From Oligoflexus sp. (GTDB lineage Bacteria > Bdellovibrionota_B > Oligoflexia > Oligoflexales > Oligoflexaceae): a DNA stretch of 27,068 nucleotides. The stretch lies in contig JBGSTX010000220.1 in assembly GCA_041736305.1 (NCBI GenBank), forward strand, positions 1-27,068. Reading direction: 5' to 3'. The stretch's first letter is position 1; every line of letters begins with the position of its first letter. The translations under genes were made by a program, and so were the position numbers. This document shows positions 1-15,800 of this stretch, piece by piece. The notes below the pieces were generated by a model. The model saw only the letters and a program-made list of their open reading frames with translations. It made no database searches and was not told the DNA's origin.

Positions 1-249
1 CTGATGCCCAAGACAGACGCCGAGGATGGGGATTTTACCCGCATAGGTCCTGATCGTGTCGAGGGTAATCCCCGCCTCATCCGGATTGCCCGGCCCTGGC
101 GATATCACGATTGACTCGGGTTTGAGTTTGCCAATAGCCTCAAGCTCGATAGCATCGTTGCGAACGACTTTAACTTTGGCCCCGAGCTGGCTCAGGTACT
201 GAAAGATATTGTAGGTAAAAGAGTCATAATTATCGATGAGTAGAATCAC
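1..249 (-). CDS. trpG: Anthranilate synthase component II (glutamine amidotransferase), 5' part; runs off the window
   Basis: Manual translation from GTG at 249: [19 protein letters not shown]...ISPGPGNP...[10 protein letters not shown], which are class I GATase motifs. GTGA overlap with the trpE stop. Confidence 0.95.
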
Positions 250-1962: not shown

Positions 1963-4398
1963 TCAAAAATTCCTATCAGCCGAGATTTGCCCAGAAGCGC
2001 GTTCCGCTTTGCGCAAGGCGAACACCACGCGACTGTCGTCAGGATCGCTGCGTAATGCCACTTTAAAATGGCGGATTGCTTCCCCATTGCGCTGCTGCTT
2101 CAAAAACCAGAGACCTAAACGGTAGTGTGCATCGAGATGATCAGGTTTGATGCGCAGTGCGTTGTAGTATTCGGCCATCGCTTCGGCTTCTTTGCCTTGC
2201 CAGCGGGCTATATCGCCCAAGACGTAGTGCGGATCGGCCTGCGCGGCTTTGAGGCTGAGGCTCTTTCTGAGTACTTCATTCGCATCCTTAAAGCGCTTTT
2301 GCTGAAAGTAAACGGTTCCTTGCGCGGTCAATACTTCAGGCCAGTCAGGCTTAATTTGTAGGGCCCGGTCGAAGTAAGTGAGGGCCTTATCGTATTCCTT
2401 GGCGTGAACGAGAATAGTCCCGAGATTCCTAAAGAGCTGCGGATCGGATGGGTTGCTCTTGATAGCTGTCTCGTAGTGCGGACGGGCCTGCGCGTAGAGG
2501 TCCTGGTCAAAGTAGATATCGCCCAGTATACGGTTGGCATCCGGGTGATTGGGGTCGAGTTTAACGGCTGTTTCCAGGTGTGATTGAGCCGCCTGGGGTT
2601 GCTGCGTCCGCATCATCGCCAAACCGATCAGAGCGTGCGAATGAGCCTGTTCGGTGGGATTTCCGTCCCCAGCGAGGCGGAGGGCCTTCATGAGGAAAGT
2701 AATTCCCTCTACGTACTGCTCGCGGCGAACGTAGAGCATCCCGAGATAACGCAAGTTCTTCGGGTCGTCTGGCTCGAGATCGGCGGCTTTTTGCAGATGC
2801 GGGAGAGCTTTGTTGTAGGCGCTCTGATTATAGTAGGCTAGTCCGAGTCGACTATGAGCTTCTTTAAAGTTGGGATCCAAACTCAGCGTCTTCTCGAAAA
2901 GTTCAGCCGCTTTCTCGGGAGTTCCATGCTGCTGCTCTATTTCGCCCAAGTAAAAGTAAATTTCAGGATCTACCTGCGTGACGGCAAGGACTTGCTGGTA
3001 ATGCTCCCGCGCCTTCTCCCAGTTGCCTTCCCGACGGAAGGTATTGGCCATAGTCGCATGAACGATCGGGCTATTGGGATTTACTTGGACTGCATGTTGC
3101 CAGAGGGAATCATCGTTCTGCCAGTAGCGCACGTTGATGAAAGTAAGGTAACCGCAGGCAGCGATCAGCAGCACAAAAAGGGCTGGTAACCAAGAACGCC
3201 GACTCATCGCCACCGTTCCGGCAAGGGCCAGCGAGGGGCCTAGCATCGCAAAATAGGCGAAAGAGTTGGCGACCGTCGAGGTGCCCTGCTCAGGGAAGAC
3301 TACTAGGCCCAGGTAAGGCAGCAAGGCAGCTGCGAAAACGCCGAAGGCTGCCGCATAAATACCCCTTAATTTGCCGTAGCCGTAGGTCATGACCGCAAAC
3401 AATACCAGGGGTATAAGCCAGGTGATATAACCCCACCAGTGCGCCTGGAGATAGGACGGGGAGCGTCCGTAATCGGGCCCCATCAGCACGGGTGCAATGA
3501 GTTTGGCGATATAGAACATAAAAGCATCGCCCGCAACGAAGGGGCGGAACCAGAGGGCAACGCTCCCACCGAGACCCTGACTGTGATTGACGCCAAGAGC
3601 CCAGACGACGGGCGGAATCGCAAAAACGATCCAGAGAACCAGTGGCCAGGTAGGCATCCGGCTTGCCATCAAGGAACTGCGCTTGGGAACGATGCTGCGC
3701 AGAATTAGCGCTATGATAGGCATAACAGCGACGACCGGCGTGGTGAGCAGTCCAAGGATGAAGGCTACACTGCCGACCTGGACGTGCCGACGACCGGAGC
3801 TTCGCGTTTGATGGGAGCGATGTTCGCAGTAGACGAGGTACTGCCACAAGGCAATGAGTGCAAAAAAGGTCGCTAGAACGTATTTAGTTGCCGCGATATA
3901 AGCGACCGGCTCGACTTGAATCGGATGCAAAGCAAAGAGCATGGCCCCCACCAGGGCGGCGCCACTGCTCTGCAGGACGAGACTGAGAACGAGCATGACG
4001 AGGATGCTGCTGGCTATGTGCAGGCCGAAGCTGAGCCAATGCAGGGTACGTGGACTCATCCCCTTTTGTGGAGCGATGGTCCGGAGCCCCGTCCACACGG
4101 TTTTAGTAAGCGGCTGATAGGCTTCGCCGGCTTTGATGCGCCAAGCTTCTTTGAGAGCCGACTGGGCGTCGGCTTCCTGGGGTTGGTCGGCGACATCGAC
4201 GAGGCCGAGGGTCCGTCGATCGTCCCATACAAAATCGGCCTGACGTAATCCCGAGAATGCCGTGGCGCTAGCCACCGCTAAGAGCAAGGCATAAAGTATT
4301 TTTTCCAAAACGAGGCTCCTTTGCCGGGACGAGTCGCACGCCGGAACAAGAGATGGACCTGAATTAGCTTCATTACCTTTGCCTCGCAAAGAAATCAA
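1963..4398 (-). CDS. TMTC-like multi-pass membrane protein with C-terminal TPR array (putative GT-C protein O-glycosyltransferase)
   Basis: FVWDD after TM1, YQPLT, LFALHPIQVEPVAYIA, about 11 hydrophobic segments, WQNDDSLW, then about 10 TPR-like repeats. Start codon uncertain. Confidence 0.8.
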   Translation of the reverse strand: MISLRGKGNEANSGPSLVPACDSSRQRSLVLEKILYALLLAVASATAFSGLRQADFVWDDRRTLGLVDVADQPQEADAQSALKEAWRIKAGEAYQPLTKTVWTGLRTIAPQKGMSPRTLHWLSFGLHIASSILVMLVLSLVLQSSGAALVGAMLFALHPIQVEPVAYIAATKYVLATFFALIALWQYLVYCEHRSHQTRSSGRRHVQVGSVAFILGLLTTPVVAVMPIIALILRSIVPKRSSLMASRMPTWPLVLWIVFAIPPVVWALGVNHSQGLGGSVALWFRPFVAGDAFMFYIAKLIAPVLMGPDYGRSPSYLQAHWWGYITWLIPLVLFAVMTYGYGKLRGIYAAAFGVFAAALLPYLGLVVFPEQGTSTVANSFAYFAMLGPSLALAGTVAMSRRSWLPALFVLLIAACGYLTFINVRYWQNDDSLWQHAVQVNPNSPIVHATMANTFRREGNWEKAREHYQQVLAVTQVDPEIYFYLGEIEQQHGTPEKAAELFEKTLSLDPNFKEAHSRLGLAYYNQSAYNKALPHLQKAADLEPDDPKNLRYLGMLYVRREQYVEGITFLMKALRLAGDGNPTEQAHSHALIGLAMMRTQQPQAAQSHLETAVKLDPNHPDANRILGDIYFDQDLYAQARPHYETAIKSNPSDPQLFRNLGTILVHAKEYDKALTYFDRALQIKPDWPEVLTAQGTVYFQQKRFKDANEVLRKSLSLKAAQADPHYVLGDIARWQGKEAEAMAEYYNALRIKPDHLDAHYRLGLWFLKQQRNGEAIRHFKVALRSDPDDSRVVFALRKAERASGQISADRNF

Positions 4399-4476
4399 CG
4401 GTAAGCGGCCAAGCTAACCGCCCAGACTTGGCTGGGAAAACGCTCAAACAGAAGCAGCTCAAGGCTTCGCCGATCG

Positions 4477-4492
4477 CGTGAAATCTCTCACG
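4477..4492. promoter_or_regulatory. CRP/FNR-family-like palindrome CGTGA-N6-TCACG
   Basis: Perfect 5-bp inverted repeat with a 6-bp spacer, about 80 bp upstream of the TPR gene. It overlaps a minus-strand TTGACG (4491-4496). Confidence 0.35.
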
Positions 4493-4521
4493 TCAAATGT
4501 CGTTTGGGCAGGGTCAGCTTT

Positions 4522-4564
4522 AAAAACAAGAAAAGCCTGTCAGCCATGCGGCATGACAGGCTTT
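4522..4564 (-). terminator. Intrinsic terminator after lipoprotein C
   Basis: Minus strand reads AAAGCCTGTCA-TGCCGCATGGC-TGACAGGCTTT followed by TCTTGTTTTT. Confidence 0.85.
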
Positions 4565-4582
4565 GCGCTTGAGGCTTTTGCT

Positions 4583-5398
4583 TCAGCGACAGTCGCCCTC
4601 ATAAGAAGCTTCGGCGGCGACGAAGGCCGCGACGATAGATCCAATTTCACAGGAAAGGCTCTTGATGCATGCGGGTGAGAGTGCCGCTGCTGAGACACCA
4701 AGCTGACAGGCTTGGGCAGCTGGAACTGCACAGGCCGCTGCGACCATTGCACCGAAGGCTTCCGACTTGCGCGCTGCGCTACAATCGACCGTAGGCTCTT
4801 CGTCAGGCTTCTTGGCCTCATTTTTTTCACCGTCTTTGGCGCCGCCTTCGGCGCGACCTTTTACGGCGATGAGTTCGAGACCGGTATCGAGATCCTGATT
4901 AAATTCATCGTCCTGAGTACCCTGGTAAAACACTGCCAGCCCTCGATCGAGGAGTTTCTCTCGCAACTCAAGAATCTCACTGATCTGGCCCGAGTCGATC
5001 GTAGCTCCCACGGCAATATCGGGATCTTCACTGGCGTCTTCTATCAAGACGCGCATAGGAATGTCGCCGAAAAGTTCGCCTTCGCCGTCTTCGACTCTGA
5101 TCTGCAGGTCTTCTTCGACGTCTTGGAGATAAGCACCTTCATAATCGATGCGCTCATTGCGTATAGTAGATTGAACGCGATTATAAACGAGAAGCAGTTG
5201 CTCATAGAGAGTTCGTCCGAGAAAAGCTTGACCTGGATCAACTCCGGATCCCGAACTAAGTTCGTCGATACTAGGTGCTGGGACCTCAGTATTCTTGCTG
5301 AGACGGCTCTTGAAAAAGCCGGCTTTCGAGCAGCCCTGTATGCTTAGCGTTGAGAGTATGAAGAGGAAGACTATCCTCTGACTAAATATGAGTTTCAT
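4583..5398 (-). CDS. Predicted lipoprotein C: acidic N-domain plus 6-Cys, Ala-rich C-terminal segment
   Basis: ATG 5398 follows a GAGGGGG SD. Signal MKLIFSQRIVFLFILSTLSIQG-C. Shows similarity to lipoproteins A and B. Confidence 0.8.
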   Translation of the reverse strand: MKLIFSQRIVFLFILSTLSIQGCSKAGFFKSRLSKNTEVPAPSIDELSSGSGVDPGQAFLGRTLYEQLLLVYNRVQSTIRNERIDYEGAYLQDVEEDLQIRVEDGEGELFGDIPMRVLIEDASEDPDIAVGATIDSGQISEILELREKLLDRGLAVFYQGTQDDEFNQDLDTGLELIAVKGRAEGGAKDGEKNEAKKPDEEPTVDCSAARKSEAFGAMVAAACAVPAAQACQLGVSAAALSPACIKSLSCEIGSIVAAFVAAEASYEGDCR

Positions 5399-5468
5399 GG
5401 GAGCCCCCTCTAGTGCTTCTATCATCCGGTTCACTCGATAGACCGGCTATGGAAGAATATTTTCTCCC

Positions 5469-5496
5469 TTATCGGCAAATCGAGCCAAAAACTTTT
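5469..5496 (-). promoter_or_regulatory. sigma28 (FliA)-type promoter for lipoprotein C
   Basis: Minus strand AAAAGTTTTTGGCTCGATTT-GCCGATAA. Confidence 0.8.
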
Positions 5497-5685
5497 GCTT
5501 AGCTTCTAAGTACGTGATTCTTGAGCATAGCCTGCTGGAGAATTAGCGCTATGGGGCTTCGTTCTTAATTAGATAAAGCGTCCCCCTGCTTTCGTTTTCT
5601 AACCCAAATCCTACCGAAAATATGGAAATCCACCTTTTCTGACCCAGCTTAAGTCTTTGAAATGAGACAATTCATACGGAATTTC

Positions 5686-5712
5686 TAAAGTTTTTCCAAT
5701 TCTTGCCGATAA
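5686..5712 (+). promoter_or_regulatory. sigma28 (FliA)-type promoter upstream of lipoprotein A
   Basis: TAAA-N15-GCCGATAA, an exact consensus including the extended TAAAGTTT. Confidence 0.9.
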
Positions 5713-5970
5713 GGTAAATAAGCAATGCATGATAGGTAAGATTAGAGAAACAGACCGCAAGCGCCAGTTTAATTATTGGCTCCCGGATTACTTCTGGCCT
5801 TATCTCATCATGCAGAAAATTCGCTAAAAAGCTTAGAAACACTGTGAAATCCAACAAGGAGGAGTCTATCGTTTCGAAGTTCCGTCGTATTTTTGGCTTT
5901 TAGTTCTCTGTTCTCGTTTTTGGTTTTTATACTTTATTTTTGCAGCACAACACCTAGAGAGGGTACAGTC

Positions 5971-6978
5971 ATGAAAGTTAGTAAGTCGATCGTTCTTGGT
6001 CTCGCCGTAATGTTCGTCAGCACAGCATGTTCTTCAAAGCAAAGCGATTTCACCAGTGGCAAAGCTAAGACTCGGGTTCTCAAATCCGAAGACAGCGCAG
6101 CCGCAAAGGTCGAGATCGAAAAGATGGAAGGATTCGAAGCAAGCTACGCTAAGGCAGCAGAAGATTACCTCAATACCAGCTATTCAGATTACATGGCTGA
6201 TATGGTTAGCAAGGTAGAGAAGCACCTGGGTTCAGACACTATCGAAGTCGATGGAGTCACTATCGACGACCCGAGCGCACTTGTTGCTGACTTGGCAGAT
6301 CTTATGGCTTCTAGCGATAACATGTATGAAACCCCACGTGAATATTTGGAGGACATGGAAAGCTCTGTCGACACCACGAACTACCAAGAAGTTAAGGAAT
6401 ATTTGGCCTCAGAAAAAGACGCACTTACTGAAGTCAAAGAAGTTTTTGCCGAAGTTGATTTTGCTAACTTCAAAATCGTCGGCGAAGGCTCCTCAGAATC
6501 CTCAGAAGAAAGTAGCCAAGAATCTTTCTCTCTAGTCTGCGGTACAGCAGTTTCAACTCCTTACGGTAGTGCAACAACAACTGTTTCAGCAAGTGCTTCT
6601 AATGATGGTACTAATTGCACTACCGCCACTTCTGCTCCAGCTGCTGCCAAGCCTGTAGCTAGTACTGTCGCTGCTCAGGCTGCTGTTACTAAGAAGAAGA
6701 CAGCAACAGCAACAGCAGCGGCTCCCGCTACCCCGGTTACTCCCCAGAACATCGCAGCTTCCCAAACTTTGGTTCAGAATGCTCAGCCACTCGCGATCAA
6801 CGGTGAAAATGCATCGAATTACGCCTCCGCTGCTGTCGACGGAATCAGCAAATACATTACCACCAATGGTGTAAATGCCCAAGCTCAGTCAATGCAAGGA
6901 AACGTCGACCAAATCGTCAGCTTAGGCCTTTCGGATGCCTTGCTCGACCTTTCAATGCTTGGTATCATGCTTCGCTAA
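5971..6978 (+). CDS. Predicted lipoprotein A: acidic N-domain, Thr/Ala-rich linker, hydrophobic C-terminus
   Basis: ATG 5971 follows a GAGAGGG SD. Signal MKVSKSIVLGLAVMFVSTA-C. The ORF-track start at 5893 is unlikely. Confidence 0.85.
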   Translation: MKVSKSIVLGLAVMFVSTACSSKQSDFTSGKAKTRVLKSEDSAAAKVEIEKMEGFEASYAKAAEDYLNTSYSDYMADMVSKVEKHLGSDTIEVDGVTIDDPSALVADLADLMASSDNMYETPREYLEDMESSVDTTNYQEVKEYLASEKDALTEVKEVFAEVDFANFKIVGEGSSESSEESSQESFSLVCGTAVSTPYGSATTTVSASASNDGTNCTTATSAPAAAKPVASTVAAQAAVTKKKTATATAAAPATPVTPQNIAASQTLVQNAQPLAINGENASNYASAAVDGISKYITTNGVNAQAQSMQGNVDQIVSLGLSDALLDLSMLGIMLR

Positions 6979-7040
6979 TTTCAAGGCAAGTACTAAGAAT
7001 CGAGGGGCTGTATAGGCCCCGAAGATTCAGTCAGCAAAGG

Positions 7041-7077
7041 ACACAGATCGCCGCTTCCAAGCGGGATCTGTGTTTTT
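7041..7077 (+). terminator. Intrinsic terminator after lipoprotein A
   Basis: ACACAGATC-G-CCGCTT-CC-AAGCGG-GATCTGTGT-TTTT. A smaller GGGGC...GCCCC hairpin precedes it at about 7004-7020. Confidence 0.85.
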
Positions 7078-7169
7078 CAATTACGATCTCCATCAAGTTC
7101 AGCGTCACCCTGCTATCCCATAAAACTCCTCTACATTTTTCCAAAAGCTCCAGATACTCCAATTTCTCC

Positions 7170-7196
7170 TAAAGTTTTTCCGAAATTTGCCGATAA
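7170..7196 (+). promoter_or_regulatory. sigma28 (FliA)-type promoter for lipoprotein B
   Basis: TAAAGTTTTTCCGAAATTT-GCCGATAA (TAAA-N15-GCCGATAA). Confidence 0.9.
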
Positions 7197-7254
7197 GAGA
7201 TTTATAAAATATATAGATGCAATCATAAGATCACAAACTTTAGAGGGAAGCTTT

Positions 7255-8286
7255 ATGAAAACTCAGTTTAAGACTTACTTAGGTTCGTCTTGTATCAGCC
7301 TCAGTCTCCTGATGTCCACTGCGTGCAGCAAGCCGTCTGATTCTGGATTCCAAGGTCAGGCTAAGCGTGCAAAGATCGAAGTCAATAGCGAGGCTCTATT
7401 CGATACCAATGCTGACCAGGCTATCAAAGACAGATATGCAATCGAAATTCAGACTGTTTTGGATACTACTCAAGAAGTATTCATCAAAGACACTCAGAAG
7501 AAAATTGCCGCCACAGTCGGTGACGATACCTTAGAATATGATGGTTTTGAATACGCCTATCTTGAGACTTCAGTAGGCTTTCTTAGCGACCTTCTTGAAT
7601 GGAGCGAATCCGTCAGTCCTGATATGACTCTCCGCGAACAGCTAGAGGATTTGGGTGAAGACGTATCAGTCCTAGAGAATTACGACACAGCTATAGCATA
7701 CGCAAAAGACCTTTCTGACAATTCACTAGTTCCAGAAATGCAGGGTCTGTATCCACCGACTGATCCCGAATCACTTGAGGAATGGGGTTCAATCTTTGAG
7801 TCTGAGGACCAAGGAGGATCAGCAGCTGAGTTTAGCCTTTTGCAGAACCCGCTCCCGCAAAGAGCTCCAGTCCCACCAAAAGACTGCGGTAGCCATACTC
7901 GGGTATTAGAAGGAGGCGTCTGCAGAGACAAGACAGCTGCCGAATTTGCTAGTGGTGCGGCTTCTGGAGAAGCGAAGTCTCAAAAAGCCTTTAACCAAGA
8001 ATTGATCAAGAAAGGGACCGCAGAAAAAACGACTCTTTACGCTGTTATCGAATCAAAGCAACAAGGTTTAGACTGGCACGCAGGTCAGATGGATATGATG
8101 TACAACAAATACAAGGATACAAATCCTGAGACTGCCCAGAGCTATTTTAATCAAGCAGCAAAGTTTCGCCAAGATGCTGATTATGCTTTAGGAGCGGAGC
8201 TGGGTAACGCCGCCCAGGTCGTAACCCTTTGGGGCTTAGGTGAAATAAATGATATATTTGGCAAGTACATGAATCTATCCAAGTAA
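7255..8286 (+). CDS. Predicted lipoprotein B, paralog of A
   Basis: GAGGG SD and signal ending SLLMSTA-C. Shares G.DT.E.DG, RE.LED, NY and FSL motifs with A. Confidence 0.85.
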   Translation: MKTQFKTYLGSSCISLSLLMSTACSKPSDSGFQGQAKRAKIEVNSEALFDTNADQAIKDRYAIEIQTVLDTTQEVFIKDTQKKIAATVGDDTLEYDGFEYAYLETSVGFLSDLLEWSESVSPDMTLREQLEDLGEDVSVLENYDTAIAYAKDLSDNSLVPEMQGLYPPTDPESLEEWGSIFESEDQGGSAAEFSLLQNPLPQRAPVPPKDCGSHTRVLEGGVCRDKTAAEFASGAASGEAKSQKAFNQELIKKGTAEKTTLYAVIESKQQGLDWHAGQMDMMYNKYKDTNPETAQSYFNQAAKFRQDADYALGAELGNAAQVVTLWGLGEINDIFGKYMNLSK

Positions 8287-8303
8287 GGTTTAGTCCTAGA
8301 GAG

Positions 8304-8344
8304 AAATCCGCTCCCTGCAAAATGCACGGGGCGGATTTTTTTTT
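8304..8344 (+). terminator. Intrinsic terminator after lipoprotein B
   Basis: AAATCCGC-TCCCTGCAAAATGCACGGG-GCGGATTT followed by a long T run. Confidence 0.85.
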
Positions 8345-8368
8345 GTTCATTGGCAACAACAATCCTAT

Positions 8369-8396
8369 TCAAGTTTTTTACAATTCTTACCGATAA
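8369..8396 (+). promoter_or_regulatory. sigma28 (FliA)-type promoter for lipoprotein D
   Basis: TCAAGTTTTTTACAATTCTT-ACCGATAA. The spacer closely resembles the 5686 copy (CAATTCTT). Confidence 0.75.
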
Positions 8397-8421
8397 GAGT
8401 TAAAATACTGGAGGAATAGCA

Positions 8422-9309
8422 ATGACCAGATCAGGTCGCCTGATTTTGAGCGCAGGCATGCTCGCGCTCTTGGCCTTTGCCTGCAGAGGCCGCGAAATTC
8501 AATCATCAGTCGTTTTGTCTCAGCAAGAAACATTGCAAGACAAAAACATAGACGGCAAGGGGACGAAATCTGAGGTCTTGGACGAAGACTCTGTTTTCAC
8601 TACGTCTCAGTCTGCAGAAGAAGACGAGCTGATGCTGCCGGGCAGTGAAGCCCCTGAGGTACCTTTTCCTCGCCTGCCTTTTGCCGCCAAAGATGTGCCG
8701 GCTAGCAGCTCGGACTTGATCAATCTTACTCTCCCTATAGAGGCTGATACAGCTTACAGTCACTACGCTGCGAAATACAGCTCGACTAATGACTGTAACG
8801 TCACCAAAGGCTACTCGGTATTTGAACGATCTAAGCCTTTCGAAGTCGCTCAGGAACTCATGCCGAACGGACCCATCTTTCTTTGCATGATTGCCTACCA
8901 CTTTCCAAGCAAGCGCTGGCAGCCAGCGAGTGAGGCGCTGGTCTATAATTGGCAGAAAGTCCCTTTGAAACGCACGATCGAAACCACTTTCGATATGCTC
9001 CTACAAGCCTGTACGACTCCGACACGAACCAACGTTCGAAGTCTTGTGACCATCAACGGAACCTCGGGAACTTATCGCTGGACCGTAATAAACCCTCCTG
9101 GCTGCTCGATAGCATCTGGCACCGGCACCAGTCTCCTAACGAACATCAAGGTTTCTGGCCCGCTCATGGAAGGTAAGTTCATAGACTCTGGAGTTGAGGG
9201 CTGGTTTAAATTCAACTTCACTAACAACGAGAGAACCTCTTTCAAAGGTTCTTGGGGATTGGCATCCGACCTCAAAGTGATCGAAGGAGCCTGGAACTCA
9301 GACCGTTGA
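8422..9309 (+). CDS. Predicted lipoprotein D with beta-rich C-terminal domain, function unknown
   Basis: GGAGG SD, lipobox LLAFA-C, and an aromatic/Gly-patterned C-terminus (GWFKFNF...FKGSWG...GAWNSDR). Confidence 0.8.
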   Translation: MTRSGRLILSAGMLALLAFACRGREIQSSVVLSQQETLQDKNIDGKGTKSEVLDEDSVFTTSQSAEEDELMLPGSEAPEVPFPRLPFAAKDVPASSSDLINLTLPIEADTAYSHYAAKYSSTNDCNVTKGYSVFERSKPFEVAQELMPNGPIFLCMIAYHFPSKRWQPASEALVYNWQKVPLKRTIETTFDMLLQACTTPTRTNVRSLVTINGTSGTYRWTVINPPGCSIASGTGTSLLTNIKVSGPLMEGKFIDSGVEGWFKFNFTNNERTSFKGSWGLASDLKVIEGAWNSDR

Positions 9310-9311
9310 CT

Positions 9312-10568
9312 TTACGCTTCCATGCGCCGACCGATATGCTGCGCGGCAAGCCAGCCACCGGTCCAGGCGTTTTGGAAGTTAAATCCTCCCGTAACTCCGT
9401 CGATATCTATGATTTCGCCTGCAAAGTAGAGTCCTGGACAGAGTCGACTCTCCATGGATCTAAAGTCGATTTCACTGCGGGAAACTCCACCGGCTGTGAC
9501 AAACTCTTCTTTGAACACACCCTTGCCCGAGACCGTGAGTTCGCTCCGCCCGAAGCGTCGCGAGAGTCCGGCAATTTCTTTTTTATTCAGCTGCGCCCAG
9601 GATTTTCCTGGGTCTAGTCCCTCGAGCTCGCAGAGTCTCTCCCAAAAGCGTCGTGAACAGGGGAAGGGGTTTTCATTGCTTAAAATCTTCTTCGCATTCT
9701 TTTCTTTAGCTTTGAGCAGAATATCCTGCGCTGCTTCCACACTGATCTCGTGGCTCCACTGCACAAACAAGCGAGCCTTATAAGCCGAAGCCGCGAGTTC
9801 GCGCGCGGCAAAGGCCGAAAGTCGCAGGATAGCTGGACCGCTCAAGCCCCAGTGCGTGATCAGCGCTCCTCCCTCTTGGATCCAGCTGGTCTTCGCGCCT
9901 TCGATTTCAAGCTCAGCGCGAATGCGGGGAAAACTCTGCCCAGGCAAATCGACTAAGAGGGGATCAGCGATTTCAAAGGTGAAGAGCGAAGGGGCAGCCG
10001 GCACCAGCGAGTGACCCAGGGCTTTTGCCAGGTCTAGACCCATGGGCATGCTGCCTGTGGCTAGGAGCACGCTTCGGCTCTTCAGTATGCGGCCGTCCTT
10101 GAGCGTGAGCTCGAATCCAGTCCCTAGCCGTCTGACTTCAGTAACTAAAGCCTTGGTATGCAATTCAACTTTCGCTTTGGAACGGGCCGTCTCGAAAGCG
10201 TCAATAATAGTCTGCGAGCTGTTGCTCAAGGGAAACATCCGGCCATCGGCCTCTGTTTTTAGCTCGACTCCCCGCTCCTTGAACCAGCGCACGGTAGACT
10301 CAGGGCCGAAGTGATGAAAGGGCCCCAGCAATTCTTTCTGTCCCCGTGGATAATTTGTGACCAAACGCTTCGCTTCGAACTGGTGATGGGTGACGTTGCA
10401 GCGCCCACCACCCGAGACTTTGACTTTCGTCAGGACGCGCGGCGTGGCTTCGACTATTGAGACCCTCATACCGGGACGGGCTTCGGCTGCGTTGATGGCC
10501 CCGAAATATCCTGCGGCCCCTCCACCGATGACGATAAGATCGTAGGGGATTTGATCTAAGGCTTCCAC
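9312..10568 (-). CDS. HI0933/YhiN(BaiN)-family NAD(P)/FAD-dependent flavoprotein
   Basis: IGGGAAG, KVKVSGGGRCNVT, GRMFP, LITHWGLSGPAIL, VTAGGV and GLYFAGEIIDIDGVTGGFNFQNAW. GTG 10568 follows a GGAG SD and overlaps the end of menE. Confidence 0.93.
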   Translation of the reverse strand: MEALDQIPYDLIVIGGGAAGYFGAINAAEARPGMRVSIVEATPRVLTKVKVSGGGRCNVTHHQFEAKRLVTNYPRGQKELLGPFHHFGPESTVRWFKERGVELKTEADGRMFPLSNSSQTIIDAFETARSKAKVELHTKALVTEVRRLGTGFELTLKDGRILKSRSVLLATGSMPMGLDLAKALGHSLVPAAPSLFTFEIADPLLVDLPGQSFPRIRAELEIEGAKTSWIQEGGALITHWGLSGPAILRLSAFAARELAASAYKARLFVQWSHEISVEAAQDILLKAKEKNAKKILSNENPFPCSRRFWERLCELEGLDPGKSWAQLNKKEIAGLSRRFGRSELTVSGKGVFKEEFVTAGGVSRSEIDFRSMESRLCPGLYFAGEIIDIDGVTGGFNFQNAWTGGWLAAQHIGRRMEA

Positions 10569-11992
10569 ACTAACTCCATAGAGACGGGACTCGCCAACCA
10601 TTCATGATAGAAGAGGCGCGACGGTTTGTTGACTTCGGCGGTTTTATGCCAGTAGAAAGCTCGCGGCCACTTGATGCGCGGCAGACTTGCGGCCAGAATT
10701 TCGAGCACTCTGGTGCGAGGAGGGGGCTCCTCTAAGCCGCGATAGATAAGGACCGGCACTTCTCCATAATCCGCATCGGGCTGCGGAATGACGAAGAAAT
10801 CCCCACGTATCTTCAAGCTCTGCAGAGGTCCAAGAATTTCACTGGGCGCTAGGTTCTCCCCCGCAACCTGAAATATTCCATCGTCTCGTCCCTCGATGCG
10901 CAGAACTTTGTCGACTAGGCTGGCTCTATCGGCCGTTGCGTACCAGCTTCCCTGCTCTTCCCCAAAATCGCTCATAGCCTTATGAAAAACGCCTTCCTGC
11001 CACCAGCCTTGGCAGAGCGCAGCTCCTCGTAGCGCGAGACGCCCATCGATAAGCGCTGCCGTCCAGGGCTCTAAGAGCCTGCCAACCTCTCGTCTATCAG
11101 CTGGCAATTCACCGGGCGGAAAAGCAGCGATCTGCGAGGCAGTCTCAGTCGAACCATAGCTTATGGAAAGAGCTAAACCGCTGGCTCCTGCCGCATGCAG
11201 CAGGTCTTCAGGACAAGCCGCTCCACCGAGGATGATCGTGCGCGCCGCCTTCAGCTGCTCTCTGTTTTCATCGAGAGCTCGTGCGAGCTGAGTTGGCACG
11301 AGAGATATAAAGTTTGAGCGATGGTAATGGAGAGCCTGAGAGAGTTCCTGCGGCTTAAAGCCCGCGTGACAGCTGAGTCCACCTAAGAGACAGCGCAGGG
11401 GAATCTGGAGTCCACCGATATGGGCAATATCCAGACTCAATAGCCATGACTCGCCGGGAACGGCCGCATAGAACACGAGCGTCGCCAGAGCCGAGCTGAT
11501 AAGACTTCGCGCGCTGTGCTGAATAGCTTTCGGTCGACCCGTCGAGCCTGAACTATAGATCAGCAGACAAGGCTTATCGAGTTCGATAGAGAGAGGCAGA
11601 GTCGCAGCCAGAGGAAGTTCGCAGGGCTGCGGCAGGGAAAGGGCCCGCAGTTTCGCCGATGGCCTCGCTTCGTCTGAGGCCCAGAATTCAAAAGCAGCTT
11701 GAGCAAGGTAGGGGTCGATCTGCTGCCGCGAGAGGCGCGAAGGCAGAAGGGCCAGGATTCCTCCTTCACCCATAGCAGCCAGGACACTGACCCAAGTTTG
11801 GTAGGGCTTGGGGCAGTATAGGGCTATGAAGTCCCCCGCTTTCAAACCAGCTGTTCGCCATTGCGAACGCAAAAGGCTGACATCGGCGGCAAGTTCAGCA
11901 AAGCTACGCGTAAAGCCCGGCTCGTGCCAAGCCAGCTGCGAGCCGTAGCTCTTGAACTTCTCTTCCATCAGGCCACTATGTATGCCGTCCAT
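10556..11992 (-). CDS. menE: o-succinylbenzoate-CoA ligase
   Basis: AMP-binding motifs SSGSTGRPK, WLLSL..AHIGG, SLVPTQL, ILGGA, SYGSTET and GRDD, plus men operon context. Confidence 0.9.
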   Translation of the reverse strand: MDGIHSGLMEEKFKSYGSQLAWHEPGFTRSFAELAADVSLLRSQWRTAGLKAGDFIALYCPKPYQTWVSVLAAMGEGGILALLPSRLSRQQIDPYLAQAAFEFWASDEARPSAKLRALSLPQPCELPLAATLPLSIELDKPCLLIYSSGSTGRPKAIQHSARSLISSALATLVFYAAVPGESWLLSLDIAHIGGLQIPLRCLLGGLSCHAGFKPQELSQALHYHRSNFISLVPTQLARALDENREQLKAARTIILGGAACPEDLLHAAGASGLALSISYGSTETASQIAAFPPGELPADRREVGRLLEPWTAALIDGRLALRGAALCQGWWQEGVFHKAMSDFGEEQGSWYATADRASLVDKVLRIEGRDDGIFQVAGENLAPSEILGPLQSLKIRGDFFVIPQPDADYGEVPVLIYRGLEEPPPRTRVLEILAASLPRIKWPRAFYWHKTAEVNKPSRLFYHEWLASPVSMELVWKP

Positions 11993-12001
11993 CGTTTTCT
12001 C

Positions 12002-13099
12002 CTAGGTCGAGCGAGGCCATATTGGCCTCGAATCCAGGATTTCAAGTCCGGGGACCGCCTCGGGACCCAATCTTGGACTCTTCGGCCAAGCTGCATGAGC
12101 GGCATAGGGCGCCAGAGGACCCTCAGCTTTCACTCCGCTAAACGCATGTATAGTTCCCAGCCCTAGGGCCTCAGGCTTATGTACGATGCGTCCATAGAGC
12201 CAAGCATAGAGCTGCAGACTCAGCTCGCTTTCGTAGGCATTGCTCAAGACGACTCGGCCCATGCGCGCATTGAGCGTCTTCATCCAGACGATGCTGCGGC
12301 TCAAACCTAGACGATTTGGTTTGAGCACCGCAAGCTCTGGCAGCGGCTGCGTGTGCAGAGGATCTAAACCGCTGAGGCTTTCATCCATAGCCAGCGGCCA
12401 TTGCGAACCAAGGACTTGACGACTTTCCAGGGCTGCTTCTTCGAAATAATCGATAGACCAGTCGCCGCGCTCAAGAAACCTTTTCCAAGAGAGTAGACCC
12501 GTCTCGTTCAACCCTCGGTTCGCGTCGAGTCGGAACCTAGCCTCAGGTCCGAGAAGTGAGCGCACTTCCCCTAAAAGATCTTGCTCGAACGCGGCTTTCT
12601 CGCGGCCAATTTTGACTTTAATACATTGAATCCCGCGTTTGCGGAGCTCATAGAGAGCCTGCCACCAGGCTGCATCGGGTACGCGCGGGAGGTGAACAAG
12701 TGCGCTGTGTTCAAAGCTATCGCTGCATGGTGCAGCGGGTAGCTCGAAAAGCCCTCGCTCGATGGCTAGGTGAAGGAGGAGCATTTCAACGCTGCTCTGA
12801 ACAGCTGGACTCGTGCGAGGGAAATTCAAACCAAAAAAATCTGCGCCGACGCTCCAGAGATTCCAATCCACATTCCCGAGGGCTGGCCCCACCGCCTGCT
12901 CCCAGTAATCCATCGCGTCTTTGAGAGTCTCTCGGTGCAAACCCGCTAAGGGAGCACACTCGGCAAAAGCGCGTCGCCCCTCTCTATCCTCAGCTTCGAT
13001 GAAGAAACCAAGCCTATCGCTGAGGCACACCGACCCTATCGTCAAAGGTAGGAGCAGGGGACGGCGATACGCGTGCAAGTCTAGGCGAAAGCTTTTCAT
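12002..13099 (-). CDS. menC: o-succinylbenzoate synthase (enolase superfamily)
   Basis: ECAPLAGLHRE, KVKIG, RLDANR, YFEE, AMDESL and VLKP. ATGA overlap with the menA stop at 13096-13099. Confidence 0.88.
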   Translation of the reverse strand: MKSFRLDLHAYRRPLLLPLTIGSVCLSDRLGFFIEAEDREGRRAFAECAPLAGLHRETLKDAMDYWEQAVGPALGNVDWNLWSVGADFFGLNFPRTSPAVQSSVEMLLLHLAIERGLFELPAAPCSDSFEHSALVHLPRVPDAAWWQALYELRKRGIQCIKVKIGREKAAFEQDLLGEVRSLLGPEARFRLDANRGLNETGLLSWKRFLERGDWSIDYFEEAALESRQVLGSQWPLAMDESLSGLDPLHTQPLPELAVLKPNRLGLSRSIVWMKTLNARMGRVVLSNAYESELSLQLYAWLYGRIVHKPEALGLGTIHAFSGVKAEGPLAPYAAHAAWPKSPRLGPEAVPGLEILDSRPIWPRST

Positions 13100-14004
13100 A
13101 CCCAAAGCAGCCAAGCGAAGGCGAGAGCGTAAAAGAAATTGAAGAGCGCCGTGCGTTTCAGCGCCATGTTCAGCGAAGATGCCGGCCCTCTCAAGAGGGG
13201 GGCAATCCCTTTGGCTATAAGCACGATGAGCAGCGCGACTATCGCCAGACCGGCAAAGAACTTTTGATGCAGCAGAGCATAGCTGAGGATGAGCCCGCTG
13301 CTGAGAAGAAGCAAAGCGAGCGGCAAGAGACGACCGGCCTTCTCGCCGACGATCGTTGCGAGAGTATGCTTTCCGGCCCGCGCATCGGTGCGGATATCAC
13401 GAGCGTTATTGATCGCCATGATAGCTGCTGCGATGAGTCCTGGTCCTAGGCCCCAAAAGGCCACAGCTCCATCGATGGATTGCGTGTGCAGATAGTTGGT
13501 TCCCATCACGGCGATGGGCCCGAAGAAAATGAGAGCGACGACTTCGCCGAGCGCGAAGTAGGAAAGCGGTGCTGGCCCTGCGGTGTAGGCATAGGCAGCA
13601 AGCGCGCAGAGTAGGGCTACGGCCGGCATCAGCCAGTCTTGATTTCGCCAGAAGAGGCCAGCGGCAATGAGCGCCGCCGCTCCGAAGCAAAAGCTATAAG
13701 CTTTTCGAACCGCTTGCTGACTCAAGAGCCCTCGCTGAACGACGCGTAGCGGACCCAGTCTTTCGCCAGCATCGACCCCTTTTTGAGCGTCCTTGGCATC
13801 GTTGACGAGATTCGCTGCCGTCTGCAGGAGCAGCGCCAGCAGCAGGGCCGAGAGACTGGCGACGATACTCAAGCCTTCTTGGGTCTGCAGAGCGCTGAGA
13901 CGGGCGAAGCCGAGTCCTAAAATAACCGGGCCGATGCCGGCGAGCAGCGTCGGTGGTCGGATCGCCATCAACCAGACTTGCCAGGTAGGAAGTGATTTTT
14001 CCAT
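13096..14004 (-). CDS. menA: 1,4-dihydroxy-2-naphthoate prenyltransferase (UbiA family)
   Basis: W..AIRPPTL, ANLVND..D..KGVD...RLGP, YTAGP.PL.Y..LGE and NNARDI..D..AGKHTLA. TGATG overlap with the menD stop. Confidence 0.93.
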   Translation of the reverse strand: MEKSLPTWQVWLMAIRPPTLLAGIGPVILGLGFARLSALQTQEGLSIVASLSALLLALLLQTAANLVNDAKDAQKGVDAGERLGPLRVVQRGLLSQQAVRKAYSFCFGAAALIAAGLFWRNQDWLMPAVALLCALAAYAYTAGPAPLSYFALGEVVALIFFGPIAVMGTNYLHTQSIDGAVAFWGLGPGLIAAAIMAINNARDIRTDARAGKHTLATIVGEKAGRLLPLALLLLSSGLILSYALLHQKFFAGLAIVALLIVLIAKGIAPLLRGPASSLNMALKRTALFNFFYALAFAWLLWV

Positions 14005-15764
14005 CAGGGTATCCTCGGGTTCTGGCTCGTCAGGTGACGGAGCTGATTCTGGTAGAGCCGATCCGCGTCGGGGCTTTGACGACATTCGATGAGCCGCATG
14101 CCACCGGTCTTGAGACTCTGACCGTAGGCATGCTCAAACTCTTTCTGACTCTGGCAGGCGATATAGTCAACTCCGGCCATCGCCGCGATTCCTTCGAAAT
14201 TAAATGTATGCGGCGTAGAGATCCAAGGATCTTTCACTTCGGGGTAGGCAGCAATAGGCAGCGTTTCAAAGATCCGCCCACCGCTGTTGTTGACGATGAC
14301 GACGATGAAAGTTCCCGTGAGACCACTTGTCTTCAGACTCAAGATCGAATTGAGATCGTGCATCATTGAAATATCGCCGAGCACCACCGTCCAGCCCTGG
14401 CGCTTGCCTCGGGCTACACCGAGCGCCGTGGCTAGCAAGCCCTCGATCCCACTGACCCCTCGATTCGCTTGAATCTCGGGCCAAGCCCCCGCAGCGTAGC
14501 ACCAGGAATCGAAGGCGCGAATAGCGGTCGAATTCCCGAGAAAGAGTCCGTGATCCTCCCGAGGACTCAGCTCGATAATCGTCTCAGCCACGGCCGCAAA
14601 GTTGAATTCTCCCGGCTCCATAGTCGCAAGCTTGTTCACTAAAGATCGCGCGCTTGCCGCGAGATCAGCTGGGGGAGGCTTAATTTCAAGATCTGCTAGC
14701 GCGACCGCCACACTGGAGAGTTCGCTATCAAACTGCAGTCTTTGCAAGAGATGAGCGGGATCCTGGGGCCCGATCTCACTGCTGAAAACCCAGTACGAGG
14801 CTGGCTCGTGACGGGCGATGAAATCGTCGAAGTATCTCGATACCAATCGACGACCCAGATGGATGATCATATCGGGACGGTACGAGCTGAGCGCTTCGAG
14901 CATCAGCGGATGCTGCAGATCGAGAATCTGCTGAGGAACCATGCCCTTCAAACCCGAACCCACATCGGCGAAGCTCGGCCAGCCTAGCTTCTCTTGGATA
15001 AATCGTGCTGCTTGCCTATCCTTTTCATTGTTGAAACGGCCCAGCAGCAGAAATCCGCGCTTGGCTTCGCCGACTGCATTTCGAAACAATGCGGCACTCG
15101 CGGCATCGAGAGGCGGACGCTCGCGCCGGGCGATCTGGGTCGGCATCTTTCTGAGCTCTTTATCCCAAGCTTCTACTTCACCCGGACCGTCTTTAACTTG
15201 CACAGGATCGAGCGGCACGTGAAAGGGCACATTGAGGTGCACGGGCCCTTGAGGTGCTGCCAGAGCTGTTTGCAGAAGGTCGCGAGCCACGTCCATCCAG
15301 GCACGGCCATCGAAGTCCTTCGAAGGAACAGGAAAATCCAGACTCTTCTTGGCAAAGCGACCGTAGATTTGTCTTTGATCGACGACCTGCTGAGCAGCGG
15401 CATGAACCAGCTCAAAGGGTCGGTCTGCTGTGACGACGAGCATGGGAACTTGTTCGACAGAAGCTTCTATCAGCGCCGGATAATAATTTGCGCCAGCCGT
15501 ACCTGAAGTACAGATCAGCACCGCCGGTAGACCTGTGGCCTTGGCGTAACCAAGCGCTTGGAAGGCGCCGGCGCGCTCGTCGAAGCAAGAGACCAGCTCG
15601 ACGTCGCTGCGCGCCTGCAGAGCGGCGATGAGGGGTGCATCCCGATAGCCTGGTGATATGAAATAAGTGCTGACACCGAGCCTACGCCAGGCAGCGATGA
15701 GAAGCGAGGCAGCCAGCATGTTCCAGTTTTTTGCAGCTTCGCTAGGTAGCGCATGAGCGGTCAT
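14004..15764 (-). CDS. menD: SEPHCHC synthase (ThDP-dependent)
   Basis: SPGYRDAPL, DERAGAF.ALG, CTSGTA, TADRP, GPVHLN.PF, NRGVSGIEG, GDIS..HDLN and VNNSGG.IF. Confidence 0.95.
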   Translation of the reverse strand: MTAHALPSEAAKNWNMLAASLLIAAWRRLGVSTYFISPGYRDAPLIAALQARSDVELVSCFDERAGAFQALGYAKATGLPAVLICTSGTAGANYYPALIEASVEQVPMLVVTADRPFELVHAAAQQVVDQRQIYGRFAKKSLDFPVPSKDFDGRAWMDVARDLLQTALAAPQGPVHLNVPFHVPLDPVQVKDGPGEVEAWDKELRKMPTQIARRERPPLDAASAALFRNAVGEAKRGFLLLGRFNNEKDRQAARFIQEKLGWPSFADVGSGLKGMVPQQILDLQHPLMLEALSSYRPDMIIHLGRRLVSRYFDDFIARHEPASYWVFSSEIGPQDPAHLLQRLQFDSELSSVAVALADLEIKPPPADLAASARSLVNKLATMEPGEFNFAAVAETIIELSPREDHGLFLGNSTAIRAFDSWCYAAGAWPEIQANRGVSGIEGLLATALGVARGKRQGWTVVLGDISMMHDLNSILSLKTSGLTGTFIVVIVNNSGGRIFETLPIAAYPEVKDPWISTPHTFNFEGIAAMAGVDYIACQSQKEFEHAYGQSLKTGGMRLIECRQSPDADRLYQNQLRHLTSQNPRIP

Positions 15765-15800
15765 GGAATAGTCTCGAGTCTAAGAGCCCAAGGGCGTCTG

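Follow-up and report, generated by a model that had tools for sequence, protein, structure and literature searches.

The Oligoflexia are, to our knowledge, almost unstudied at the molecular level. Paralogue families of lipoproteins in Borrelia and the variable lipoproteins of Mycoplasma combine a conserved N-terminal part with a variable C-terminal part; they vary by recombination, repeats or phase variation, and the bacteria are host associated. Glycine-zipper outer-membrane lipoproteins of the SlyB/Pcp type are small and have a C-terminal hydrophobic segment rich in small residues. The SitA proteins of Myxococcus are polymorphic lipoprotein toxins in six families, SitA1/2 to SitA7, and are described as having a lipobox, a disordered stretch, a family-defining N-terminal domain and unrelated C-terminal parts (PMC8546572). 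In the same description, the escort domains have about 375 residues, the C-termini are nucleases common to other toxin systems, and a sitI immunity gene always follows (PMC8546572).

We analysed 27,068 nucleotides from Oligoflexus sp. (GenBank assembly GCA_041736305.1, contig JBGSTX010000220.1), referred to here as the window. Three of its genes, C, A and B (Table 1), encode members of one real, rare and previously undescribed lipoprotein family with a common N-terminal domain, which is known to date from a single branch of the Oligoflexus lineage (Bdellovibrionota, Oligoflexia). On balance, we regard the members as two-domain envelope lipoproteins in which a constant N-domain is joined to a replaceable C-terminal module. 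An earlier, sequence-only reading of the window had described a conserved N-domain with an exchangeable payload; its observation was partly confirmed and its interpretation partly supported.

The present family and SitA are alike in having a lipobox followed by a disordered stretch, a conserved N-domain and unrelated C-terminal parts, with several copies per genome in variable regions. They differ in that the N-domain here has about 100 residues, and the modules of B (a helical hairpin) and A (low complexity) are unlike the SitA nucleases. Like the Borrelia and Mycoplasma families, it is lineage restricted and multicopy, with a conserved signal peptide, tether and N-terminal part and a copy-specific C-terminal part; unlike them, the sole length variation observed in it consists of two in-frame differences in A, and C is under purifying selection. 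Pfam gave no sequence relation to those families. The hydrophobic tails of C, of protein P0026 and of a family member from G009/G095 (Ala/Gly/Val/Cys-rich in this member) are similar in general composition to the SlyB/Pcp type, but these tails are Cys-rich, the modules of A and B are quite different, and glycine-zipper families were absent from the Pfam matches of the family alignment, P0026 included. Unlike leader-peptide bacteriocin or pro-peptide precursors, the genes have no processing peptidase or export transporter nearby (Pfam scan of the window, other loci). Their hydrophobic patch, set beside the junction motif of such precursors, is conserved in subfamilies and not clearly family-wide.

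Table 1. Positions of genes and protein segments in the window
Feature	Position	Strand	Basis or remark
Gene C (P0003), 271 aa	4583..5398	-	Divergent family member; hhalign against the family
C, signal peptide and lipobox (…LSIQG/C, Cys23), then SKAGFF	5330..5398	-	Lipobox pattern; Cys invariant among C orthologues
C, N-domain core, about residues 56-130, with IRNERIDYEG and MRVLIEDASEDPD	5009..5233	-	hhalign alignments
C, patch LELIA, end of acidic linker	4865..4879	-	Aligned to B FSLLQ by hhalign
C, C-terminal module, residues 205-271, hydrophobic, Cys-/Ala-rich	4586..4786	-	Five Cys positions common to P0026
Gene A, 335 aa from ATG at 5971	5971..6978	+	ORF translation, BLASTP to B
A, signal peptide and lipobox (…FVSTA/C)	5971..6030	+	Lipobox pattern
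A, N-domain core (LGSDTIEVDG … PREYLEDMESSV)	6130..6372	+	BLASTP, family alignments
A, patch FSLV, behind Ser/Glu-rich linker	6526..6537	+	Orthologue comparison
A, C-terminal part, low-complexity Thr/Ala/Gln-rich, two Cys	6538..6975	+	Translation
Gene B (P0002), 343 aa	7255..8286	+	BLASTP to A, genomic HMM
B, signal peptide and lipobox (…LMSTA/C, Cys24)	7255..7326	+	Lipobox pattern
B, N-domain, residues 53-156, helices and beta-hairpin at GDDTLEYDGFEY	7411..7722	+	AlphaFold2
B, acidic linker, confidence mostly low	7723..7830	+	AlphaFold2
B, patch FSLLQ	7831..7845	+	Comparison with P0023
B, C-terminal module: Cys211…Cys223 hairpin and long helical hairpin (228-326)	7846..8283	+	AlphaFold2, pLDDT 53-94
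Gene D (P0004), 295 aa, fourth lipoprotein	8422..9309	+	Different family; co-directional with A and B

Architecture and distribution of the family

The proteins are built in a common order. A predicted type II signal peptide, with its lipobox cysteine, is followed by a short conserved stretch (Ser/Asn, x, x, Gly/Ser, Phe, x, Gly) and a basic tether, which in every member is rich in Lys, Ser and Ala. Next comes an acidic helical domain; it spans about 100 residues and contains a beta-hairpin (GDxEFxxxGxxF) and a helix (TxRExLEDLG). The linker behind it is flexible and acidic or Ser-rich, often with a short hydrophobic patch at its end, and leads to a C-terminal module of about 35-160 residues particular to the subfamily. 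In A, B and C, two Lys/Arg residues precede the hydrophobic stretch of the signal peptide, and all three fit the lipobox pattern, which we take to be that of PROSITE PS51257. Among 27 proteins (26 family sequences and the unrelated neighbor D), 21 fit this pattern, 5 nearly fit it, and one has no N-terminus. The lipobox Cys and the Gly of the GD motif are near-invariant in A3, the family alignment of 23 sequences, which includes P0026. Ser or Asn at position +2 would predict outer-membrane sorting under the E. coli rule only, which may not apply here. AlphaFold2 modelling of B (23 sequences) predicted a helical N-domain with a hairpin (strands at residues 93-95 and 98-100), mostly with confidence: block pLDDT was mostly 73-94, with a single block at 61. 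The segments with pLDDT below 50 include residues 22-31 and 33-38, next to the lipobox.

The N-terminal parts of A and B were aligned by BLASTP at an E value of 2e-7 (29 % over 122 residues, composition-adjusted), which already refutes chance similarity for this pair. An HMM iterated over the complete set of six-frame ORFs converged, for this genome, on nine copies, and C brings the number to ten. In a library of 1,835,955,588 representative proteins, 22 were matched at an E value of 0.001 or less; this genome accounts for 8 (two assigned to it by length only), and foreign proteins reached profile E values of 1e-20 and below. With this genome counted, the family is present in 3 of 41 related genomes (E ≤ 0.01) and in 2 of 95 of the order (E ≤ 0.001). 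Relatives of one flanking gene lie in Oligoflexaceae/Oligoflexus genomes. No member gave a Pfam or NCBIfam match below an E value of 0.001, PDB sequences gave nothing better than 0.0036, and the fold search gave nothing over background, in agreement with the sequence-only reading, which had recognised no described family in the N-domain. The genes thus define a protein family absent from databases. Its domain boundary is clear, and of its roughly two dozen known members, ten are copies in a single genome.

In the reading that we favor, Sec export and lipidation would leave each protein hanging by its tether from an envelope membrane. The N-domain would be the constant unit, and the linker would allow the C-terminal module to fold back onto it; with such folding back, each paralogue would be a two-domain envelope protein. 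Duplication and subsequent replacement of the C-terminal module would have diversified the family, and each copy would therefore present a module of its own. In B this is a helical hairpin, in A a tract of low-complexity Thr/Ala/Gln sequence, and in C a hydrophobic tail rich in Cys and Ala. In our view, the proteins most probably serve a structural purpose or an interaction, in the envelope or at the cell surface, and toxin delivery is less likely. The family offers a small, tractable case of envelope lipoprotein diversification, in which an N-terminal unit is kept and a C-terminal one replaced.

C-terminal modules, their inheritance and their neighborhood

The C-terminal parts of the A group and the B group are unrelated (hhalign probability, 0.1 %), which bears out the modular build proposed earlier for the paralogues. 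The module of B matched generic helical hairpins only (Z up to 8.6); its Cys pair and CGSHT are kept in the orthologue P0023, which is 32 % identical to B. The orthologues of A are P0018 and P0024, and those of C are P0029 and P0030 (64-65 % identity). Within orthologue groups, the two parts of the protein are conserved to similar degrees: 66-68 % (N part) and 63-66 % (C part) for C, 33 % and 31 % for B, and 47 % and 43 % for P0005/P0016. The modules thus differ between paralogues and are inherited with the N-domain inside each orthologue group, and this conservation of homologs over their full length is a result that the sequence-only reading had itself named as evidence against its interpretation. 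A strain from a second study, about 1.6 % different, has the entire cluster. In this near-identical strain, the C-terminal part of A has 12 nucleotides inserted at 6618-6627 and a 6-nucleotide difference at 6699/6700, both in frame, and 4 of the 6 differences listed in A up to position 6480 are synonymous. All 12 differences in C are synonymous, and the gene is under purifying selection. A is listed as P0001 with one extra residue, from 5968.

By analogy with SitA, the N-domain could be a carrier that escorts a variable effector against neighbor cells or the cell's own envelope. The general build is the same (PMC8546572), the genes lie in a variable region with a G+C content of 0.46-0.49 in 8 of the 10 copies (genome, 0.513), and a membrane-active peptide would be in keeping with the hydrophobic Cys/Ala/Gly-rich tails of C, of P0026 and of the G009 member. 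We nevertheless consider this explanation unlikely. None of the 23 A3 members, and not C, had a Pfam match below an E value of 0.001, and at an E value of up to 1 toxin and effector families were absent for these proteins and for A and B; the lone immunity-family match was that of one member to Imm5, at just 0.027. C and P0026 matched no Pfam family at all at this threshold. In this genome, neither other carriers nor orphan cassettes with the modules were found, and the modules did not turn up as short proteins either; specifically, a free short protein corresponding to the C-terminal part of C was sought and not found. Orthologues retain their own modules, C differs between strains by synonymous changes only, and the N-domain is much shorter than the approximately 375-residue SitA escort domains (PMC8546572).

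The gene neighborhood also argues against a carrier. At the 9 loci checked, no recurrent, tightly coupled downstream ORF was present (gaps: A to B, 277 nucleotides; B to D, 136 nucleotides; nothing within 1.2 kb of P0010), and no neighbor family was common to the loci of the copies. Measured against SitA, the family is without a toxin-family match, a recurrent downstream gene or any sign of module exchange between carriers. Paralogues of D lie on contigs C390 (E value, 2.4e-46) and C232 (6.4e-6). The locus is variable: the flanking TrpE and HI0933-like genes directly adjoin in G008, and one histidine-kinase-like gene lies between them in G002. A Pfam scan of 14 further large ORFs in the window assigned them to tryptophan or menaquinone biosynthesis, TPR, flavoprotein, signalling or glycolysis, or gave no match, and no peptidase or export gene was among them. 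The earlier comparison with the exchangeable payloads of polymorphic effectors or pro-peptide systems is therefore unsupported: these searches gave no toxin domain, no recurrent downstream gene and no linked immunity gene, peptidase or exporter. At present the genes represent an orphan family, not a demonstrated new mechanism. Were the modules released or toxic, the myxobacteria would no longer be alone in having a lipoprotein effector system of this kind.

The junction patch

The sequence-only reading had correctly quoted FSL at 6526-6534 (A) and 7831-7839 (B) and LEL at 4871-4879 on the minus strand (C), as it had everything else that it quoted, and had described (F/L)xL as a junction after which composition changes abruptly. 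Family-wide conservation does not reach the patch: it stops where the helical domain stops, 20-60 residues earlier. The profile match ended at position 97-138 of 159 in 13 of the 14 foreign members, and the A orthologue P0018 was the sole one to match up to position 157. This indicates that the alignments place the boundary at the close of the helical domain, and that the linker preceding the patch varies. The motif itself is not clearly enriched family-wide. Among 14 other representative members, the strict pattern [FL].L[VLI] occurred in 2, and shuffled sequences led us to expect 1.6. When the pattern was relaxed to [FLMY].L[LVIA], a choice made after the data had been seen, it occurred in 7 of 14 with 3.8 expected (P = 0.046). 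An unsupervised motif search did not recover the patch. The motif that it did return, SEFSLxY, lies within the domain (LLR, 83.7; shuffles, 70.4 ± 2.9), and no second motif was found.

Within subfamilies, the patch is kept. It reads FSLV in A and P0018 and MSLL in P0024, and FSLL/LRLL in the B group, where B and P0023 have A191, E192, L195, L196 and Q197 in common. The P0009 group has LKLQ/LKLL/FELL, and C, P0029 and P0030 invariantly have LELIA; a Cys pair follows the patch in many members. An acidic flexible linker with a conserved hydrophobic patch at its end is also the form that a processing site could take, which counts against the two-domain reading. A lipid-anchored pro-protein is accordingly a second alternative, with the N-domain as pro-domain or intramolecular chaperone and a protease that cuts at or just after FSL/LEL to free the C-terminal part. 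In addition to the retained patch and Cys pair, the mostly low confidence of the acidic linker in AlphaFold2 (in B, pLDDT below 50 at residues 158-170, 172-174, 176-179 and 181-202) is consistent with this, as is the end of the C-to-family hhalign alignment at the patch. AlphaFold2 gave B a C-terminal fold separate from the N-domain; the arrangement of the two is not confidently predicted because the pTM of the full-length model was 0.39. When the B N-domain (45-160) and B 186-343 were paired in ESMFold2, a test that joins two parts of one chain, the median score was 0.54 against 0.01 for the best control, which is "weak support" by the tool's own calibration. This result bears on the folding back of the module in the favored reading as well as on a pro-protein. 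Of 157 solved complexes, 116 attained the mark, as did 2 of 215 mismatched pairs; only 18 of the solved complexes, together with both passing mismatches, did so with scores of 0.60 or under. Across runs, at least 45 % of the contacts agreed, with a partner pLDDT of at least 58.

We hold such a pro-protein to be improbable, since the strict patch pattern is not enriched and the relaxed one was chosen after the data had been seen, the unsupervised motif falls inside the domain, family-wide conservation ends ahead of the linker, and no peptidase gene is among the linked genes in the window or at the other loci. Likewise improbable is its extension to a new type of lipid-tethered pro-protein, in which the N-domain would hold and mask the module, cleavage in the linker at the patch would free it, and the handle would have been recombined with unrelated cargos as Oligoflexus evolved. 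On that pro-protein reading, the module of the C subfamily would be a Cys/Ala/Gly-rich membrane-active peptide released into the envelope or onto neighbor cells. Independently of that reading, it counts against the two-domain view that the hydrophobic tails of C, of P0026 and of the G009 member might act as membrane-active peptides.

Placement of gene C in the family

Of the three paralogues proposed from the sequence alone, A and B are joined by BLASTP, and C by profile comparison only. Pairwise, A and C gave a best E value of 2.9, which is not significant, and B and C a marginal 0.10; the nine-copy genomic HMM gave C only 1.6 bits. C is placed in the family because profile comparison matches it although direct pairwise comparison does not. 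Compared with A3 by hhalign, C alone reached 93.6 % (E value, 2.2e-7), and C with its two orthologues reached 96.9 % (1.9e-10) over 158 columns, the profile-profile significance on which the earlier proposal had depended. The latter alignment stops at AEFSLLQN/TGLELIAV. With signal peptide and Cys removed, C still scored 28.1 (E value, 5.8e-4), 9.7 standard deviations above 100 shuffles of C (mean, 10.5; standard deviation, 1.8; maximum, 17.1). That the likeness arose by chance, or from the composition of lipoproteins that are acidic and helix-prone, as the weak pairwise and HMM values for C might suggest, is exceedingly improbable against these shuffles, the composition-adjusted match of A to B, the foreign library matches and the near-invariant GD-motif Gly.

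P0026 provides a second bridge to C: it matched the family at an E value of 1.2e-4 in the library search and aligns with C end to end, with five tail Cys common to both. Cys23 of C is invariant in alignments A4 and A5, and the orthologues of C read IGNERIDYEG, which restores the near-invariant family Gly. The ATG at 5398 is the likely start of C, and the ORF list places a GTG upstream, at 5434.

A narrow family of lipoproteins with a shared N-terminal domain

A, B, and C, three lipoproteins encoded in the window (P0001, P0002, and P0003), form a real, undescribed, and taxonomically very narrow family. Each begins with a signal peptide that ends in a lipobox cysteine (lipobox pattern of PROSITE). 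The sequence-only reading had aligned the three into one family, and all of the strings that it quoted were found in place. This alignment proved right, C included, as judged by BLASTP for A and B and by profile-profile comparison for C. A and B matched at an E value of 2e-7, with 29% identity over 122 residues spanning the signal peptide and the N-terminal domain. In pairwise comparison, C showed no significant similarity to A (best E value, 2.9) and only marginal similarity to B (E value, 0.10).

Further copies were sought in a six-frame translation of the window's genome (5.02 Mb, 392 contigs). Searches using phmmer with A and B detected more copies on other contigs, and a hidden Markov model (HMM) of the shared acidic, helical N-terminal domain (N-domain) converged in four iterations on nine genes: A, B, and copies on contigs C375, C305, C106, C83, C45, C10, and C35. 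All but the C35 copy have a lipoprotein signal. The C35 copy (L007 5922-6416, minus strand, in the window's genome, G000) lacks a signal peptide; it is immediately preceded by a TAG stop near the end of the contig and is possibly a pseudogene, a broken gene, or an assembly artifact. A word-based homologue search with B returned only B itself. That the N-domain belongs to no described family, as the sequence-only reading had suggested, agrees with Pfam and NCBIfam, where no family fell below an E value of 0.001 for any member. No PDB sequence matched better than an E value of 0.0036.

Distribution outside the genome

An HMMER search of 1.84 billion representative proteins (E value of ≤0.001) with profile A2, an alignment of the nine genomic N-domains, matched 22 proteins, 8 from the window's genome and 14 foreign (P0015 to P0028). 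Among the eight, five appeared under their own identifiers, P0014 is an internal-start version of family member P0005, and for P0012 and P0013 length was the sole basis of assignment. Clear foreign orthologues were found for A (P0018 and P0024), B (P0023), the C375 copy (P0016), and the C45 copy (P0015 and P0019). Matches were found in 3 of 41 species-representative relatives at an E value of ≤0.01 and in 2 of 95 order-level genomes at an E value of ≤0.001, each count including the window's genome; many of the genomes searched are incomplete, and in these the family is to be read as not found rather than absent. The other clear carrier, G004, has two copies. The match in G009 was weak, and inspection revealed a family member with a long Ala/Gly/Val/Cys-rich tail. 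Searches for related loci with P0018 (genome contigs) and P0023 (metagenome contigs) confirmed no relative. The flavoprotein encoded beside the cluster shares only 57-62% identity among "same genus" genomes, and the group is therefore deep. TrpE of the window has its closest named relatives in Oligoflexaceae and Oligoflexus genomes, in line with Bdellovibrionota as guessed in the sequence-only reading. The G009/G095 member (L121 1057-2316, plus strand, contig C262; the closest named relative) has a long hydrophobic Ala/Gly/Val/Thr/Cys-rich tail that runs off the contig and is similar in composition to the C and P0026 tails.

C is a divergent member of the family

Profile comparison identifies C as a divergent family member. 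Against the HMM of the nine copies, C scored only 1.6 bits yet aligned exactly where the sequence-only reading had proposed. A word-based search with C returned only two close orthologues, P0029 and P0030 (64-65% identity), both of which have Gly, the family's near-invariant residue, in place of the Arg in C's IRNERIDYEG. Profile-profile comparison with the 23-sequence family alignment A3 gave 93.6% (E value, 2.2e-7) for C alone and 96.9% (E value, 1.9e-10; 158 columns) for C together with P0029 and P0030 (the C group). Because signal peptides could inflate these values, the test was rerun with C from the residue after the cysteine. The score was then 28.1 (E value, 5.8e-4), versus a mean of 10.5 (standard deviation, 1.8; maximum, 17.1) when C was shuffled 100 times. 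An independent line of evidence linking C to the family is P0026, which matched the family at an E value of 1.2e-4 when the library was searched, can be aligned with C over the full length, and has five Cys positions of C's tail in common with it. A C-group profile detected no orthologue in 21 other genomes of family rank.

Order of parts and fold

The order of parts along the protein was derived from A3 and from an AlphaFold2 model of B built with A3, which agree. A Foldseek search of PDB with the model of B returned nothing at an E value of ≤0.001, and the exhaustive structural search VIA-align wide related the C-terminal part of B only to generic helical hairpins (Z up to 8.6). When the N-domain was modeled alone, confidence was low (mean pLDDT, 55) and the best fold match (Z, 5.8) was within background; the N-domain may therefore still have a known fold.

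Genes of the cluster (window positions) and parts of the family proteins (residues of B)
Feature	Position	Strand	Length	pLDDT
TPR membrane protein gene	1963-4398	-	811 aa	
C	4586-5398	-	271 aa	
A	5971-6975	+	335 aa	
B	7255-8283	+	343 aa	
D	8422-9306	+	295 aa	
HI0933-like flavoprotein gene	9312-10601	-		
Part 1, signal peptide and Cys				
Part 2, short conserved stretch: Ser/Asn, x, x, Gly/Ser, Phe, x, Gly				
Part 3, basic Lys/Ser/Ala-rich tether				under 50 at B 22-31, 33-38
Part 4, helical domain with one beta-hairpin at GDDTLEYDGFEY	B 53-156			blocks mostly 73-94, one block 61
Part 5, acidic linker, mostly low confidence				under 50 at B 158-170, 172-174, 176-179, 181-202
Part 6, patch FSLLQ	B 193-197			
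Part 7, Cys211-Cys223 hairpin, then long helical hairpin	B 228-326 (helical hairpin)			

Conservation ends before the junction patch

The acidic linker ends in a hydrophobic (F/L)xL patch (FSLV in A, FSLL in B, and LELI in C), which had been proposed from the sequence as the conservation boundary. Conservation stops earlier. The library profile match ended at position 97-138 of 159 in 13 of the 14 foreign members, and across the family the boundary therefore falls where the helical domain ends; the A orthologue P0018 was the sole foreign member matched on to profile position 157. Both the length and the sequence of the linker vary, and in most members a short hydrophobic patch closes it, after acidic or Ser-rich residues. 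This patch is well kept in the A group (FSLV, FSLV, and MSLL) and in the B group (FSLL and LRLL, with A-E-x-x-L-L-Q invariant), and LELIA is invariant in the C group. Among the other representatives, the strict pattern first proposed was present in 2 of 14 (1.6 expected), and a relaxed pattern, chosen after the data had been seen, in 7 of 14 (3.8 expected; P, 0.046). Unsupervised motif search did not recover the patch or any significant second motif; what it did yield was another motif, SEFSLxY, at the domain end of one subfamily (log-likelihood ratio [LLR], 83.7 versus 70.4 ± 2.9). The evidence for a putative family-wide patch motif is thin. In A3, the SEFSLxY subfamily comprises P0006, P0008, P0009, P0011, P0015, P0019, P0021, and P0025, most of which have no Cys after the lipobox; in the remaining members, a Cys pair usually follows soon after the patch.

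C-terminal modules differ between subfamilies

The C-terminal modules of the A and B groups are unrelated (hhalign, 0.1%). That of A is Thr/Ala/Gln-rich and of low complexity, that of B consists of a disulfide hairpin and a helical hairpin, and that of C is a hydrophobic Cys/Ala-rich tail. A candidate C-terminal motif common to A and B (GNVDQIVSL and GNAAQVVTL) was rejected as not significant (LLR, 87.5 versus 83.4 ± 3.4 in shuffles). Within orthologue groups the modules are retained, about as well as the N-terminal part for C, B, and the P0005/P0016 pair and less well for the A and P0009 groups. Searches with phmmer detected none of the modules elsewhere in the genome, and a word-based search, covering shorter proteins only, returned nothing for the tail of C as a free-standing protein.

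The whole cluster is also present in a strain, about 1.6% different, from a second public study. The strain differences inside C are all synonymous (12 of 12), as are 4 of 6 in A among the differences listed (up to position 6480). The low-complexity part of A differs in length in frame, with 12 nucleotides inserted at 6618-6627 and a 6-nucleotide difference at 6699-6700. Given these synonymous and in-frame differences, the cluster genes are real and under constraint. Sequencing runs X3 to X6, from which the stretch is largely or wholly missing, were left out of the interpretation. The low-complexity sequence of A at 6625-6650 also attracts a pile-up of short contigs from other organisms.

Proposed organization and alternative readings

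Together, these comparisons establish how the proteins are built and how that build has evolved. The family most likely consists of envelope lipoproteins, in which a flexible acidic linker would join a constant N-terminal unit to a replaceable C-terminal module, and the module may fold back on the N-domain. Complex prediction for the N-domain of B with the remainder of B gave a score of 0.54 (best control, 0.01), rated "weak support"; the runs agreed in at least 45% of contacts, with a partner pLDDT of at least 58. Of 157 solved complexes, 116 reached the mark for this prediction, as did 2 of 215 mismatches; at scores of 0.60 or under, it was reached by only 18 of the 157 solved complexes and by both of these mismatches. 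The predicted contact is compatible with a module that folds back and equally so with a pro-protein, in which processing would take place at the patch and the N-domain would serve as a pro-domain; this second reading is otherwise not supported. Nor is a toxin carrier: such a role for the N-domain would resemble that in SitA lipoprotein toxins, for which a toxin domain and an immunity gene are defining features (PMC8546572), whereas neither was found for the window's family. The carrier, processing motif, and exchangeable payload of the sequence-only reading are a possible mechanism but not a supported one.

Locus and neighboring genes

The genes for the family lipoproteins C, A, and B and the unrelated lipoprotein D (P0004) are flanked by the TPR membrane protein gene on one side and by the flavoprotein gene on the other. 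In G008 no gene separates TrpE from the flavoprotein gene, and in G002 a single histidine-kinase-like gene (TPR/Hpt/HATPase protein) lies between them; the position taken by the TPR gene and the four lipoprotein genes is therefore variable. The G+C content of 5000-9000 is 0.43-0.48, versus 0.53-0.59 in the flanks. Recent transfer is a candidate explanation at most; the family genes themselves are only mildly low. Within 4300-9500, promoter-like sites were at chance level (5 found, 4.7 expected); 11 terminator-like sites were found (5.0 expected), none of which was taken into the interpretation. Besides the A-B tandem, no neighbor family recurred among the loci of the scattered copies, and no tightly coupled downstream open reading frame (ORF) recurring at these loci was found.

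D, codirectional with A and B, belongs to a different orphan family and has a C-terminal GWFKFNF…FKGSWG. It matched nothing in Pfam or NCBIfam and has paralogues on contigs C390 (E value, 2.4e-46) and C232 (E value, 6.4e-6). In the TPR protein, the first ~430 residues look hydrophobic and membrane embedded on reading and are followed by TPR repeats. Modification of Ser/Thr-rich lipoproteins by this protein was considered and found no support; its N-terminal membrane part matches no family in Pfam or NCBIfam.

The other genes of the window are housekeeping genes. An 838-aa ORF (19788-22304, plus strand) had no Pfam match at an E value of ≤1e-5; an 805-aa protein with a 7TMR-DISM domain follows and overlaps it. 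A menaquinone-type biosynthesis cluster (10556-17929, minus strand, and 18127-19149, plus strand) lies next to a polyprenyl synthetase gene and encodes an AMP-binding enzyme, an enolase-like protein, a UbiA prenyltransferase, a TPP enzyme, a chorismate-binding enzyme, and a UbiE methyltransferase.
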